Source of the DNA: a virus | Lineage: Duplodnaviria > Heunggongvirae > Uroviricota > Caudoviricetes | IMG/VR virus record: IMGVR_UViG_3300030618_000005 | DNA length: 17,935 nt | Strand: one strand, 5' to 3' | Part shown: positions 11,220-16,089 of the stretch, one piece after another | How positions within the stretch are numbered: the stretch's first letter is position 1 | How the letters are laid out: each line of letters opens with the position of its first letter | Position numbers and translations under genes: made by a program | Notes under the pieces: model-generated | Databases searched by the model: none | The model's input: only the letters and a program-made list of their open reading frames with translations | Told to the model about the DNA's origin: nothing

Positions 11220-11407
11220 TGGGAATCTTCAGGAGACTATTTCGCAAACCTAGGTACACGTTCTCTTCTGTCCAAAGCTTCAAGATGCTGACACAGGCAC
11301 AGATGCTAATCAATAATGGTAGGGAGAGCGAGGCGCGATTGGTAATTCTTAGTGGACAGGAAAAGTTCCCTAAGGATGCGATCTGGTTCACGTGGAAAAA
11401 CCTTTGA
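11219..11407 (+). CDS. Small hypothetical protein (62 aa), basic amphipathic N-terminus and single TPR-like helix pair
   Basis: TGATG overlap with the upstream stop. MGIFRRLFRK is followed by LTQAQMLINNGRESEARLVILSGQEKFP. Confidence 0.55.
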   Translation: MGIFRRLFRKPRYTFSSVQSFKMLTQAQMLINNGRESEARLVILSGQEKFPKDAIWFTWKNL

Positions 11408-11432
11408 CATCCACGGCCCTCTGGTGTACAGT
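11404..11432 (+). promoter_or_regulatory. Sigma70-type promoter (TTGACA-N17-TACAGT)
   Basis: TTGACA at 11404-11409, 17-nt spacer, TACAGT at 11427-11432. The predicted start near 11439 precedes the GAGGG RBS and ATG at 11449. Confidence 0.8.
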
Positions 11433-11664: not shown

Positions 11665-11929
11665 CTCAGTTCTTGCGAACTACGAGCTTGGAGACGTGTT
11701 CATGGTCGCGGGCGACAAGCGCCTGTGGCAGTTGATACACCGTGACCCGTGGAAAGCTTACGTGCAGAAGATCACGTTCTGGGACGAGCTGAAGCACTGG
11801 TTCAAGAAACGAAAAGCGAGGAGACGCTTTGCAAGCGAACAATCTAAGTCTGGTAGGAAGCTGCCTGCCCTACACGGCAGCACAATCGAAGGCTACAACG
11901 ACAAATCCGAAAGACCTTCAGGGCAGTAA
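11636..11929 (+). CDS. Small hypothetical protein B (97 aa), apparent paralogue of A
   Basis: In-frame GTG at 11636 with AAGGAG 7 nt upstream. It shares a GD-hydrophobic...R-W...R...V...W...W pattern with gene A. Confidence 0.6.
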   Translation: MPKIKIVEPSSVLANYELGDVFMVAGDKRLWQLIHRDPWKAYVQKITFWDELKHWFKKRKARRRFASEQSKSGRKLPALHGSTIEGYNDKSERPSGQ

Positions 11930-12392
11930 GAAAGTCCCGCTGGGCCAAGTGTGCCCGGTAGCGATGGCGCACGAAGCTTGTGCAATGCTCGACGGTGACC
12001 TGAAGTACGGGTACCGCAACTGGCGAGAGAAGAACGTAGTCGCCAATATCTACATCCACGCAGCTCTACGACACCTTCAGAGCTGGGCTGAAAAGCAAGA
12101 GGTAGCAGAAGACTCTGGTGTGCATCACCTCGGCCATGCCCGTGCGTGCCTCGGTATCCTATTGGACGCTCAGGCCAACGGCAACCTGATCGACGACCGC
12201 GCAGCCGGTGTGTTCCCTGAGGTGGCACACCAACTCGAAGACTGGGTGACTAAGCGCGTAGCGAAGCACACACTGGAGCAGGCGGCCAAGGCGCAAGCGG
12301 CGGCTCGTGACCAGTTCACCTTGCAGTCCGACACCTTGAATCAACAGGTCGGCATGGGCTATATCAACAACGCAGCACAGGGGAACAGCTAG
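11829..12392 (+). CDS. DUF5664-type dATP/dGTP diphosphohydrolase N-terminal-domain protein
   Basis: TTG start with GAGGAG RBS. NPKD...KVPL...A.A...G..KYG.RNWR......Y..A..RHL..W...E....DSG.HHL.HA.A...IL is the family signature. Confidence 0.85.
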   Translation: MQANNLSLVGSCLPYTAAQSKATTTNPKDLQGSKKVPLGQVCPVAMAHEACAMLDGDLKYGYRNWREKNVVANIYIHAALRHLQSWAEKQEVAEDSGVHHLGHARACLGILLDAQANGNLIDDRAAGVFPEVAHQLEDWVTKRVAKHTLEQAAKAQAAARDQFTLQSDTLNQQVGMGYINNAAQGNS

Positions 12393-12686
12393 ATGCCGAG
12401 AGACGAGAAGGGGCGCTTCGTGAATAGCGAAGACGGAGAAATCTACGGAACGTACATTGATGAGAAAGGATACCCGCGCATCAGCGCAGGCCCGCATCGG
12501 GGCGTACGTGTCCACACTCTTGTCGCAGAAGCAATGCTGGGCCGGAAGCTCAGGCAGGGCGAGGACGTACATCACAAGGACGAGAACAAGCTCGACTGTG
12601 CATGGACGAACCTAGAAGTAATCGACCACGTGGCGCATGGCAAAGTAAGCTCAGCCAGCTACCAGAAGTCGAGGGAGAAGTTCTAA
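12393..12686 (+). CDS. HNH endonuclease (HNH_3-like), small
   Basis: RVHTLVAEAMLG...DVHHKDENKLDCAWTNLEV...H motif, with a PRDEKGRF motif at the N-terminus. ATG directly follows the upstream stop. Confidence 0.85.
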   Translation: MPRDEKGRFVNSEDGEIYGTYIDEKGYPRISAGPHRGVRVHTLVAEAMLGRKLRQGEDVHHKDENKLDCAWTNLEVIDHVAHGKVSSASYQKSREKF

Positions 12687-12904
12687 TGGACTCAATGAAG
12701 CAGGGCAACAAAGGCGCAGACTGTAATGTCCTTCAGGAGTTCTTCGACGCCAAGCCAGCAGACGGAAAGTTCAACCCCGTCACCCCGGTCAGTCAATTCA
12801 ATCCCGTGACTGTCCCAAGCAAATTCAATCCCGTGAAGCCAGAGAGTCAATTCAACCCTCTCGCTCCGCCTAGCCGATTCAATCCCATCCCGAGTTGCGA
12901 GTGA
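12686..12904 (+). CDS. 72-aa microprotein ending in five tandem 9-aa [KQR]FNP repeats
   Basis: A TAATG overlap at 12684-12688 supports the ATG at 12686 rather than 12602. The repeats vary at synonymous positions but keep F-N-P. Confidence 0.75.
   Translation: MDSMKQGNKGADCNVLQEFFDAKPADGKFNPVTPVSQFNPVTVPSKFNPVKPESQFNPLAPPSRFNPIPSCE
12767..12901 (+). repeat. Five degenerate 27-bp tandem repeats encoding KFNPVTPVS / QFNPVTVPS / KFNPVKPES / QFNPLAPPS / RFNPIPSCE
   Basis: Units start at 12767, 12794, 12821, 12848 and 12875. The core TTCAA(C/T)CC recurs every 27 nt, and the last unit ends exactly at the stop codon. Confidence 0.9.
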
Positions 12905-12909
12905 GTCCA

Positions 12910-13098
12910 ATGAACTTCACACCACTCGGAGACCCGAACTTCAAGCCCGTACTTGTTGAGACGTTTCGTGGGCCAAGGGAGATGGAACAGCGTCTCAATA
13001 CGCTGGCCCTAGACCCAACCAATCGATATAGCCTTGAGGGATTCTCAATCTCCAACGGGTTGTACGTGGTGATCCTTATCTGGACACCAGAAGAATAG
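12910..13098 (+). CDS. Small hypothetical protein (62 aa; alternative GTG start at 12901), possibly DUF4177/DUF1737-like beta-alpha-beta fold
   Basis: The ORF abuts the upstream stop and ends just before a terminator. VLVETF...EMEQRLNTLA...YSLEGF...YVVIL pattern. Confidence 0.55.
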   Translation: MNFTPLGDPNFKPVLVETFRGPREMEQRLNTLALDPTNRYSLEGFSISNGLYVVILIWTPEE

Positions 13099-13113: not shown

Positions 13114-13138
13114 CCCCTCCTTCGGGAGGGGCCTTTTT
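13114..13138 (+). terminator. Rho-independent terminator with C(UUCG)G tetraloop
   Basis: CCCCTCC-TTCG-GGAGGGG followed by CCTTTTT. Confidence 0.85.
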
Positions 13139-13154
13139 CCGTCTAGGAGGAGTG

Positions 13155-13643
13155 ATGCACAAAACCGCATTTATCGAAGGAGTGTACCGCTATTCCCTCA
13201 CACGTGAGTGGGATGCGTCTTTGCCTGTCTTATACTGGGTAATGCTCAATCCATCGACCGCCGATGCTATGAATGACGATGCCACCATCAAAAAGTGTAT
13301 TGGCTTCGCAAGGCTCAATGGTTACGGAGCTATTATGGTAGTCAACCTATTTGCCTACCGCGCTACCGACCCAATAGAATTGACCAGTACTCCATCGGAT
13401 GTGGTTGGGGCGCTCAACAATGGTGTCATCGAATCCATCCCCGTAGGTGCCGATGTGGTATGTGCGTGGGGTTCGTTTATTCACACCAAACCTTCCCTAC
13501 GGTATAGGGGCAGAGAGGTCATGCGAATTATCAAGGGTCGCAACCTTCTCTGTGTCCGTAGAACCGAAGACAGACCGTGGCACCCGCTCTATGTCAAGTA
13601 CGGAGCGTTCCTTGACTTCAATGATGTTTTGAAAGAGGAGTAA
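13155..13643 (+). CDS. DUF1643 family protein
   Basis: YRY.L.R.W......VMLNPSTAD...DD.TI.KC..FA...GYG...VVNLFAYRATDP...VVCAWG...HPLY signature. RBS AGGAGG; alternative GTG start at 13152. Confidence 0.85.
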   Translation: MHKTAFIEGVYRYSLTREWDASLPVLYWVMLNPSTADAMNDDATIKKCIGFARLNGYGAIMVVNLFAYRATDPIELTSTPSDVVGALNNGVIESIPVGADVVCAWGSFIHTKPSLRYRGREVMRIIKGRNLLCVRRTEDRPWHPLYVKYGAFLDFNDVLKEE

Positions 13644-13646
13644 TGT

Positions 13647-14432
13647 ATGTCAGCACCAACCCAAACGACAACCCCGGCTGCACCAGCAGTCCCGGTGGTC
13701 CCTGTGGCAACGACTGTTGCTACGACGAAGACGTGGCTTCAGAATCACGAACGCCTTATCCTCGTAGTCCTCGTGCTTTCCTTTCTCGTCTTCGGAGTGA
13801 GCAAGTACTTCGACCGCGAGGCCACCAAAGATCAGGCCGCCGCTAGTCTCGCGCAACAGCAACTCGCCGTTGCATCCGAGAACAGCAAAGCCCTCGCCGC
13901 TCAGGTAGCAGGCCAGACGGCGCAGTATCAGGCGCTTGTGATTCAACTCACACAGCAGAACGCTCAGCTAACTCAGCAGGTCAACACCCGCACGGTCGTG
14001 CTACAGCAGCAAGTAGCCACCGATAAGAATCTCCCCTTGCCGCTTCTTGGCAATCGATGGGCGACTCTTATTCAGGCAGCACCGGGCGACTTGACTGCCA
14101 CAACCGCAGGGGTCACCGTATCGCCTCAGGCGGCGTTGGCCACTGTTACCCAACTCGAATCTGTACCCGTGCTCTCGAAGAACCTAACTGACACGCAGAC
14201 AGAGAACACCAACTTGAACGCAGAGCTTACATCCTCTGACGATCTGACAACCGGCCTGAAGTCTCAGGTCACAGCTTTGAACACTCAACTGGGAGACCAG
14301 ACGAAAGCATGTAAGGCCGAAGTAGCCTCGGTAAAGGCTTCAGCTCGACGTGGAAAACTCAAGGCATTCCTGTTCGGAGCTGGCGTAGGAGTTGGCGTAA
14401 CCCTAGGGATCGTCGTCCACGCTTTGTTGTAA
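13647..14432 (+). CDS. Membrane-anchored coiled-coil protein with N- and C-terminal hydrophobic segments (spanin-like candidate)
   Basis: RBS GAGGAG. TM segment LILVVLVLSFLVFGV, a Q/A-rich coiled coil, a Pro-containing hinge, a second coiled coil, then RRGKLK and FLFGAGVGVGVTLGIVVHALL at the C-terminus. Confidence 0.6.
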   Translation: MSAPTQTTTPAAPAVPVVPVATTVATTKTWLQNHERLILVVLVLSFLVFGVSKYFDREATKDQAAASLAQQQLAVASENSKALAAQVAGQTAQYQALVIQLTQQNAQLTQQVNTRTVVLQQQVATDKNLPLPLLGNRWATLIQAAPGDLTATTAGVTVSPQAALATVTQLESVPVLSKNLTDTQTENTNLNAELTSSDDLTTGLKSQVTALNTQLGDQTKACKAEVASVKASARRGKLKAFLFGAGVGVGVTLGIVVHALL

Positions 14433-14442
14433 GGAGCAATAA

Positions 14443-16089
14443 TTGAATAGCGTAATGAATACGTTCCAACTGACGATCATGCTTCAGAAGTATGCTGAGA
14501 CAAAGATCGACGGTTCGAAGGAAACGTGGCCAGAGATAGCATACAGAGTCGCGTACCACGTGCTCAGCGCGGTCGGAGCATCTGAAGAGACCATCCGGCG
14601 CACAGCCCAACTCATCACTGAAATGAAGTTCATCCCCGGAGGCCGGTACCTCTACGCCTCGGGCAAGCCCTTCCATCAGACTCAAAACTGCCTGCTCATG
14701 CGCGTGCTCGATAGCCGCGAAGGGTGGGCAGATCATTTGCACAAGCACGCAATGGGCCTCAGTACCGGCGCGGGCCTAGGCACCAACTACTCACTCATCA
14801 GACCCGAAGGCTCTCCTATCGGGCGCACAGGCGGCGTGGCCAGCGGGCCATTAGCCCTGATGCAGATGACCAACGAATGCGGTCGCGGTCTCAAGCAGGG
14901 CGGCTCACGCCGTTCGGCGCTATGGGCCGGACTCAACTGGTCTCACAAGGACATCTTCAAGTTCATCGCCATGAAGGACTGGACGCCTGAGGTACGAGCG
15001 ATGAAGCTCAAGGACTTCAACTTCCCGGCGACGATGGATGGCACCAACATCTCCGTCTGTCTGGATGACGAGTTCTTCCTAGCTTACGCGGACGAGAATA
15101 ACGAATGCCACCTCTGGGCACAGGATGTGTACTGGCAGACGGTCGAACGTATGCTCCGTACCGCCGAACCCGGCTTCTCCGTTGACACTGGGAAGAACGC
15201 TGGCGAAGACCTACGCAACGCCTGTACCGAAGTCACCTCGGCTGACGATTCTGACATCTGCAACCTTGGCTCGATCAACATGGCCAACATCGCAAATGTC
15301 GGAGAGATGGTAGAGGTCACCCTCCTAGGAACCCATTTCTTGCTGGCTGGCAGCGTCTACAGCGACCTGCCGTACGATAAGGTGGGGGAAGTACGCTCCA
15401 AGAATCGTCGGCTCGGCCTAGGGCTTATGGGGCTTCACGAGTGGATGCTCAAGAAAGGACTACCGTATGGACCCTCAGTCGAACTCGAAGATTACCTGCG
15501 AGTCTACGCGCAGTCAACTGAAATGGCTGCGCGCCAAGCAGACATCTGGGGCATTAGCCGACCTGTCAAGACACGTGCGATTGCACCCACAGGAACCATT
15601 GGTATCCTTGCGGGAACTACGACTGGCATCGAGCCTCTGTTCTGTGCCGCGTACAAACGTCGATACGTCGATGCAAACGTCTGGAAGTATCAGTACGTCC
15701 TAGACCCTGTGGCGAAGCGACTCGTCGAATCCGGCGAGGTTGATCCCGACGCCATTGAGGACGCTTACACACTGGCTCAGGAACCGGAGCGCCGTATCGC
15801 CTTCCAAGCATGGCTCCAGCAGTATGTGGATCACGCCATCAGCTCAACCCTCAACCTCCCCGAGTGGGGAACTAAGTACAACAACGCCGACACGGTGAAG
15901 CCGTTCGGTGACATGCTCATGAAGCATCTGCCGTTCCTGAGGGGCATGACAGTCTACCCTGACGGCGCACGCGGCGGCCAGCCTCTCACAGCAGTCAAGT
16001 GGGCGACGGCCATGAAGCACAAGGACGAGATATTCGTGGAAGCTATGGATATCTGTGAGCTGGGTAAAGGAGGTACGTGTGGGTCATGA
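14443..16089 (+). CDS. nrdJ: Class II (adenosylcobalamin-dependent) ribonucleotide reductase, compact phage type
   Basis: TTG start 6 nt after AAGGAG (alternative ATG at 14455). KFIPGGR, QNC, GGSRRSA, RNACTE (N-x-C-x-E), CNLGSIN, RRLGLG, IAPTGT, GIEP, ISSTLNLP and TVYPDG.R motifs are present, plus a C-terminal Cys pair (ICELGKGGTCG). It lacks the class I YY pair and there is no adjacent beta subunit. Confidence 0.85.
   Translation: MNSVMNTFQLTIMLQKYAETKIDGSKETWPEIAYRVAYHVLSAVGASEETIRRTAQLITEMKFIPGGRYLYASGKPFHQTQNCLLMRVLDSREGWADHLHKHAMGLSTGAGLGTNYSLIRPEGSPIGRTGGVASGPLALMQMTNECGRGLKQGGSRRSALWAGLNWSHKDIFKFIAMKDWTPEVRAMKLKDFNFPATMDGTNISVCLDDEFFLAYADENNECHLWAQDVYWQTVERMLRTAEPGFSVDTGKNAGEDLRNACTEVTSADDSDICNLGSINMANIANVGEMVEVTLLGTHFLLAGSVYSDLPYDKVGEVRSKNRRLGLGLMGLHEWMLKKGLPYGPSVELEDYLRVYAQSTEMAARQADIWGISRPVKTRAIAPTGTIGILAGTTTGIEPLFCAAYKRRYVDANVWKYQYVLDPVAKRLVESGEVDPDAIEDAYTLAQEPERRIAFQAWLQQYVDHAISSTLNLPEWGTKYNNADTVKPFGDMLMKHLPFLRGMTVYPDGARGGQPLTAVKWATAMKHKDEIFVEAMDICELGKGGTCGS

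Follow-up and report, generated by a model that had tools for sequence, protein, structure and literature searches.

A phage microprotein with five tandem F-N-P nonapeptides and its family in soil metagenomes: a possible disordered linear-motif binder

What can a phage do with a protein of only 72 residues that ends in five copies of a nonapeptide built around F-N-P? This question is raised by a small gene (P0002) on the plus strand of the stretch of DNA analysed here, which is 17,935 nucleotides long and is called the window throughout. The window is the reverse complement of positions 44039-61973 of a virus record of 96,656 bp; the record has a G+C content of 54.5% and a terminal overlap of about 150 bp, and its completeness according to CheckV is 100%. 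The coding sequence of the microprotein extends from 12686 to 12904, stop codon included, and a Shine-Dalgarno (SD) sequence, GAGGGAG, lies on the same strand at 12672-12678, 7 nt 5' of the ATG at 12686. A unique N-terminus of 27 residues is followed by five units of nine residues each (residues 28-72, positions 12767-12901, plus strand) which run up to the stop codon, and F-N-P occurs in every unit, at residues 29, 38, 47, 56 and 65, with a constant step of nine. Re-translation thus gave the same 27 residues and exactly five 9-mers that the initial annotation of this locus had described, and its coordinates are correct. Residues 12-22, D-C-N-V-L-Q-E-F-F-D-A (12719-12751, plus strand), were delimited as a helix module from an AF2 helix and the family alignment. 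Cys71 adjoins the C-terminus, and 12 of the 72 residues are Pro. When the residues were shuffled, at least two F-N-P tripeptides were obtained in 835 of 200,000 cases, and five copies in register are far beyond that expectation. In the other ORFs of the window phage the motif S-[KRQ]-F-N-P was not found. A longer frame of 100 residues starting from the ATG at 12602 was also considered. It was rejected because it overlaps the HNH gene that lies upstream, and because the SD site, the starts of the homologues and the gene calls on 23 metagenome contigs favour the form of 72 residues.

It has to be asked at the outset whether this ORF encodes a protein at all, or whether it is a DNA-level minisatellite, a spurious ORF without protein function. 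A period of 27 nt is detected by TRF, and an antisense frame at 12692-12910 is likewise open, as would suit a minisatellite. However, TRF reports only 2.4 copies at 74%, and as DNA the five 27-nt units share pairwise just 48-67% identity although their peptide motif is invariant, which indicates that the repeat is old as DNA and is maintained as a peptide. It had been pointed out earlier that F-N-P stays the same while its codons vary (AAC/AAT, CCC/CCT, AGT/AGC), and this variation was reproduced. Codon usage varies across the family as well: in both conserved motifs the Ser, Asn, Pro and Leu codons differ between members, and Ser is encoded by TCG in some and by AGY in others, a change that requires two substitutions. 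A close comparison is possible with a homologue of 69 residues, which also has five repeats. It comes from a phage in which the gene next door shares 81% identity with that of the window phage (P0006, loci L008-L010). Over 70 codons the two genes differ by 18 synonymous and 4 non-synonymous changes; all four of the latter fall in spacers and none in F-N-P. A third position in the plus frame is read as a first position in the antisense frame, where the same changes would mostly alter the product, and this marks the plus frame as the coding one. In addition, homologues that are as little as 25-45% identical still have the synteny and the SD sites, SD-like sites preceding most of them. The SD site, the substitution pattern and the homologues together argue strongly that the 72-residue ORF is a genuine translated gene, and one that is under purifying selection, so that the earlier proposal of selection on the peptide is borne out. 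The initial annotation had named neutral, minisatellite-like variation as the finding that would speak against it. The family-wide variation of motif codons, the synonymous excess and the divergence of the DNA units refute that reading, and we regard it as hardly credible. The DNA encoding L-Q-E-F-F-D-A was separately considered as a conserved target of a homing endonuclease; this was rejected, as the codons differ across the family.

To build the family, 1.84 billion representatives were searched with a profile, and an alignment of eight sequences was then used in a word-index search; with P0002 alone, the word-index search gave one distant relative. The family comprises 34 distinct small homologues of 46-86 residues, all from soil or peat metagenomes, and additionally gp32 of the phage Tunturi_3. 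Long profile matches (P0010-13, 16, 17, 19, 22-24) were discarded as unrelated repetitive proteins. A canonical member is mildly basic at its N-terminus and continues with a helix motif (P-D-x-x-[VLI]-L-[QEM]-E-F-F-[DG]), a beta hairpin (S-V-T-[VI]-D-G-K-T-V) and S-[KR]-F-N-P in one or two copies; a Cys usually follows, and the end is short and charged. In the helix the positions D12 and L16 (window numbering) are nearly invariant. S-[KRQ]-F-N-P is sharply defined: among 66 instances Asn and Pro are present in 100%, Phe in 97%, Ser in 94% and R/K/Q in 92%. After F-N-P mostly V or A is found, and the further spacer positions are unconstrained. From one motif to the next the step is 9 or 10 residues across the family, and 11 also occurs within P0015. 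A Cys lies near the last motif in most members and is missing from P0027, P0030, P0037, P0043 and P0044. A syntenic protein of 51 residues on a 90-kb Logan contig (P0045) keeps the helix, N-V-L-Q-E-F-F-D-A-K-P, has a Lys-rich tail and lacks F-N-P; it may be a true variant without the motif, or the result of a frameshift.

Outside this family nothing comparable was encountered. The protein had not been recognised by the initial annotation, and this is confirmed by the absence of any match for P0002 in Pfam-A or PHROGs; when 28 members were compared with Pfam and PHROG, single chance-level matches were obtained (E at least 0.0016). The family profile gave 0 matches at E <= 10 among PDB sequences, and an ESM Atlas search with P0002 and P0032 gave no usable match. 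A known structural repeat family, which had been named in advance as a finding that would change the interpretation, was therefore not met with in Pfam, PHROG or PDB. By tblastn of P0002 against 50,697 phage records, matches had E values of at least 1; the top one was Tunturi_3, which was confirmed by synteny, and matches to mycobacteriophage tail fibres were set aside as compositional. A search for related loci in IMG/VR gave no match with P0002 and one contig with an alignment of the Tunturi clade; the same alignment found none in 185,579 species genomes. A pattern search for F-N-P arrays, as suggested with the initial annotation, gave no relatives: at the DNA level, three F-N-P at a period of nine were matched in IMG/VR by 27 loci, none of them related, whose sequences were collagen-like in antisense, rich in Gly or of the low-complexity kind of giant viruses. 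The family and its range of one to five copies came from the profile and word-index searches. Three copies of S-[KRQ]-F-N-P were matched in the 185,579 species genomes by two non-coding repeats, and no cellular protein with a comparable array was found there. In a literature search no known linear motif matching S-[KR]-F-N-P was found, nor anything relevant on phage linear motifs. The family is thus new to databases, while a small disordered linear-motif protein of a phage is, as a kind, not unprecedented in principle.

How typical is the window protein of its own family? One motif is carried by 12 members, two by 16, four by three and five by two. The series of copy numbers and the hairpin of the canonical members indicate that the hairpin-less form with five copies is a lineage-specific expansion and not the ground plan of the family. 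The best explanation of the sequences is an ancestral form with one or two motifs behind a small beta hairpin, from which the window lineage would have lost the hairpin and gained copies up to five. The description of the protein as a leader plus five nonapeptides is therefore true of the window lineage and does not hold for the family.

This bears directly on the earlier suggestion that the protein is a multi-core RiPP-like precursor, whose N-terminus would be a leader for a maturase and whose five nonapeptides would be released or cyclised. Multi-core RiPP precursors are known for cyanobactins and for triceptides (three-residue-cyclophane radical SAM enzymes), and apidaecin has a multi-copy proline-rich precursor. 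The window protein is like these in its leader-plus-cores appearance, i.e. a unique segment with repeated short units and an invariant core; an aromatic residue with invariant neighbours recalls the motifs of triceptide precursors, and a Cys is common near the end. Unlike them, its family has a single-motif basic state, and 28 of the 34 members carry only one or two motifs. Domains of radical SAM enzymes (PF04055), YcaO (PF02624) and 2OG-Fe(II) oxygenases (PF13640) were absent from the 100%-complete genome, with the controls positive, and the annotation of Tunturi_3, with its 147 genes, lists none either. The initial annotation had seen no maturase in the window, and for these three kinds of domain this observation is hereby extended to the whole genome, although a maturase encoded by the host is possible. 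No conserved cleavage site was found in the spacers, and no signal or export element in the protein.

A further objection comes from a sister lineage (P0015, P0047-P0050; loci L039-L042 and L048-L050), which is represented by several independent contigs from different samples. Here the order of the modules is reversed: two to five copies of S-R-F-N-P come first and P-D-C-N-[VE]-L-Q-E-[AF]-F-D-A-K-[GE] is C-terminal. In BLASTP, residues 12-23 of P0002 match 55-66 of P0048, and residues 36-71 of P0002 match 16-56 of P0048. The sister lineage has the same two modules as the window lineage, no hairpin, and a closely related phage backbone that includes a membrane protein of 272 residues; it differs in the reversed order, in a motif spacing of 9-11 residues (10 in P0048) and in the lack of the 60-aa neighbour. 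The D-C-N prefix and the missing hairpin are common to these two lineages only, and together with the closely similar neighbours of 261 and 272 residues they indicate that the two are close kin. The opposite orders of the modules point to two independent functional elements on a flexible chain. An interchangeable order would be hard to reconcile with a leader that directs the processing of cores downstream of it, as the supposed leader is C-terminal in the sisters. The RiPP-like reading is poorly supported for these reasons, and we consider it very unlikely. In L039 (1853-1957), and at the same place in L048, the 60-aa neighbour gives way to an ORF of 34 residues, which has a transmembrane helix and runs in another frame over the 3' end of the microprotein gene.

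A flexible chain is also what structure prediction suggests. For P0002, AF2 with an alignment of 28 rows gave a helix at residues 13-20 only (pLDDT 64, pTM 0.17); the model of a canonical member shows a beta hairpin and an extended tail besides the helix (pLDDT 62). Here pLDDT values of about 60 from a shallow alignment are compatible with folding on oligomerisation or with metal. The window protein is thus predicted to be mostly disordered, with no compact fold. Could it instead be a small protein of structural or oligomeric nature whose fold forms only on assembly, as polyproline-II or beta stacks joined by Cys or metal, for instance inside the virion? The content of 12 Pro in 72 residues would suit this, as would the Cys of most members and the period of nine residues, since three turns of a polyproline-II helix make nine residues; the gene also lies on the same strand as the arm of structural and ejection proteins. 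However, the spacing of 9 or 10 residues across the family, with 11 in P0015, leaves no fixed structural period, the number of copies falls to one, the Cys is lost in the five members named above, and no packing is seen in AF2. Moreover, lysis-like and nuclease genes separate the gene from the virion genes, and it apparently has its own promoter and terminator. We therefore hold an oligomeric structural protein to be unlikely. A strictly periodic structural repeat, such as a collagen-like one or a polyproline-II lattice, was rejected because a strict period is not kept: it is 9 in the window lineage only, 9-11 in P0015 and 10 in P0048. For the same reason the comparison with a YSPTSPS-like scaffold that was drawn earlier does not go beyond analogy, as the period is not fixed in the family.

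The surroundings of the gene are remarkably constant. In every locus examined (L001, L008-10, L038, L039-42, L043-46, L048-50, L053, the P0045 contig and Tunturi_3) the microprotein gene occupies a shared slot between a dGTP-diphosphohydrolase-like gene on one side and a membrane protein of about 260 residues and a class II ribonucleotide reductase (RNR) on the other. In the window it is the third gene of a block of four, all on the plus strand. The first encodes a dATP/dGTP diphosphohydrolase-like protein of 187 residues (11829-12392; PF18909, E 7.9e-22), which is the upstream neighbour at all related loci. The second encodes an HNH_3 homing endonuclease of 97 residues (12393-12686; PF13392, 2.3e-9, plus several HNH PHROGs), a mobile insertion whose stop codon overlaps the start codon of the microprotein and which is missing from the slot in Tunturi_3, L044, L045 and L046. 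The fourth, at 12910-13098, encodes an alpha/beta protein of 62 residues, the usual 3' neighbour in canonical (helix-first) loci. A sigma-70-like promoter candidate, TTGACA-17-TACAGT (11404-11432, plus strand), found as a pattern match only in a consensus scan, could start the block, and the transcription unit is ended by a strong intrinsic terminator with a G+C stem of 7 bp and a T run (13114-13141, plus strand); in L001, too, the pair of microprotein and 62-aa genes is followed by a hairpin of this kind and a T run. Upstream in the window lie genes for large ejection-type proteins, a lysis-like cassette and an Mre11/SbcD-type nuclease, and downstream those for DUF1643, a protein of 261 residues and the class II RNR.

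Some further observations were made on these neighbours. The PF18909 protein matches a PHROG labelled 'endolysin; inhibits RNA polymerase', and gp31 of Tunturi_3 is annotated likewise; the label looks like a propagated mislabel. As the gene is MazZ-like, a Z-genome context was considered as well, but no PurZ-like gene is present in the genome and hence there is no sign of a 2-aminoadenine pathway. Insertions accumulate just 5' of the microprotein gene, at a hot spot that holds HNH_3 in the window, L001, L008, L039, L043 and L048, with a GNAT gene in L039, a protein of 109 residues with HExxH in L048 and a tRNA-Tyr in L001 as extras; it is empty in Tunturi_3, L044 and L045. The 62-aa protein has a beta-alpha-beta-beta fold in an ESM Atlas model (pTM 0.55) whose nearest models are DUF4177-/DUF1737-like. 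Its homologues occur in all canonical loci, where the start overlaps or abuts the stop of the microprotein in most; the permuted lineage does without it, so that it is not an obligate partner. The initial annotation had noted two F-x-P-[LV] motifs at the beginning of this next gene. These are present only in the window phage and the 81% relative and not in distant homologues, so that the remark does not hold more widely. The DUF1643 gene (13152-13643; PF07799, E 4.5e-35) stands between the terminator and the 261-aa gene; it is missing there in L008, L045, L046 and Tunturi_3 and is thus probably another mobile or accessory insertion. In the 261-aa protein (13647-14432) a transmembrane helix at the N-terminus and a hydrophobic C-terminus rich in Gly frame a long coiled region rich in Q and A, and a block L-P-x-P-x-L-G-N-R-W is conserved. 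This protein is the most constant downstream neighbour of the microprotein in both architectures. The class II RNR (14443-16089, 548 residues) ends in a Cys-containing tail, C-E-L-G-K-G-G-T-C-G-S, which is conserved in gp35 of Tunturi_3.

Gene content and order place the window phage with a cultured relative. Tunturi_3 is a podovirus of Acidobacteriota with a genome of 97.6 kb, from Finnish tundra soil (PMC11924767; Microbiome 2025; PP885686). The class II RNR of the window is 68% identical to that of Tunturi_3, and the gene order is the same in both. The window phage is related to this Tunturiibacter phage and belongs with it to a group of soil podophages of about 90-100 kb. The microprotein gene is 100% identical across six contigs of the same phage, which are population variants. 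Two variants, L004 and L005, carry an extra Endonuclease_7 gene (132 residues) before the RNR gene and after the 261-aa gene, and in them another small gene replaces the 62-residue ORF after the nuclease.

What kind of protein would be conserved in this way? An invariant core of five residues, free spacers, variable spacing and copy number, modules that do not depend on order and the lack of a fold together suggest a non-catalytic binder. The features by which linear-motif proteins are recognised are found here: no stable fold is predicted around the motifs, and the core stays constant, in contrast to spacers, spacing and copy number. We propose that the microprotein is a disordered multivalent linear-motif binder, a reading to which we give an even chance and in which both the binding and the partner are inferred. 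It could serve as a scaffold, an adaptor or an inhibitor. All copies of S-[KR]-F-N-P would fit one and the same pocket, on a single molecule of the partner protein or on several, and the number of motifs would set valency and avidity. The amphipathic helix, D-x-N-V/L-L-Q-E-F-F-D-A, may provide a second, independent contact. The common Cys near the last motif is left unexplained by this model. The initial annotation had offered a multivalent short-linear-motif decoy as one of its readings; its motif-protein part is the best fit to the data, and the targets that it named (a defence sensor or a protease adaptor) are pure guesswork.

Ser is found two residues before Phe in 94% of the 66 motif instances, and the annotation of Tunturi_3 includes a kinase and a dual-specificity phosphatase. 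It could be possible, then, that the motif is the recognition site of a protease, a kinase or another modifying enzyme which the protein titrates as a decoy or substrate, and multiple copies would make an efficient competitive substrate. Such a titrating substrate is, however, a special case of the binder model, from which sequence alone cannot separate it, and as an explanation in its own right we find it distinctly unlikely.

For the binder, the partner could come from either side of the infection. A host protein is slightly favoured over a phage protein, e.g. an enzyme of the surrounding nucleotide-metabolism cluster. The gene keeps the same slot inside that cluster in all relatives examined, and for this reason a phage partner, with the microprotein serving for instance as an enzyme scaffold, is about as likely as a host target. 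The constant slot looks like that of a core gene, and it suits a role in the metabolism of the phage itself at least as well as a role in an arms race. A more specific possibility, which we put forward tentatively and with clearly less than even weight, is that of a phage sponge tunable by copy number, in which a conserved protein of the acidobacterial host, for instance a replication/repair hub or a defence sensor, would be sequestered or clustered by the arrays. On this reading the arrays, of 1 to 5 copies, would have expanded independently in two lineages, tethered to a helical motif that works in either order.

Phage 'dark matter' consists mostly of small proteins of unknown function, and to our knowledge very few small phage proteins act via repeated linear motifs. 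The present family offers a natural series of copy numbers (1, 2, 4 and 5), a permutation that separates the modules, and a sharply defined motif of five residues. Acidobacteriota are a dominant and poorly studied phylum of soil, and knowledge of the microprotein's partner would lead to a hub protein, of host or phage, that is important in their infection.

Comparable arrangements are known from eukaryotes and their viruses, where N-P-F arrays bind EH domains and the FFAT motif, E-F-F-D-A-x-E, binds VAP. By analogy the microprotein is like the N-P-F arrays in that a tripeptide core of an aromatic residue, Asn and Pro is repeated in a predicted disordered, proline-rich region in variable copies; unlike them, it has the order F-N-P. 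Membership of FFAT was considered for the E-F-F-D-A of the window protein and rejected. This segment is replaced in homologues (L-M-T-D-L-V, L-M-E-Y-I-E, L-Q-E-R-I-H), where T-D-L-V-C, E-Y-I-E-K, E-R-I-H-E and E-A-F-D-A are found, and its flanks are not acidic. We know of no EH or MSP domain partner in Acidobacteriota. The sole named true relative is gp32 of Tunturi_3 (XOB77213.1), an unstudied 'hypothetical protein' which is 46% identical to P0002 over 48 residues (E 2e-8, pairwise BLASTP). It lies in the same slot as in the window, with the dGTP-diphosphohydrolase-like gene 5' and the small alpha/beta protein, a membrane protein of 255 residues and the class II RNR 3'. Like P0002 it has the helix motif (V-L-E-E-F-F), S-R-F-N-P and a Cys near the end; unlike P0002 it has 60 residues, only two motifs and the beta hairpin S-V-T-V-D-G-K-T-V. 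As gp32 belongs to a cultured phage of Acidobacteriota, the partner could be found by direct experiment. If the sponge proposal were true, the tandem-motif mimicry of eukaryotic viruses would be extended to phages, with Tunturi_3 and Tunturiibacter psychrotolerans as the cultured system.
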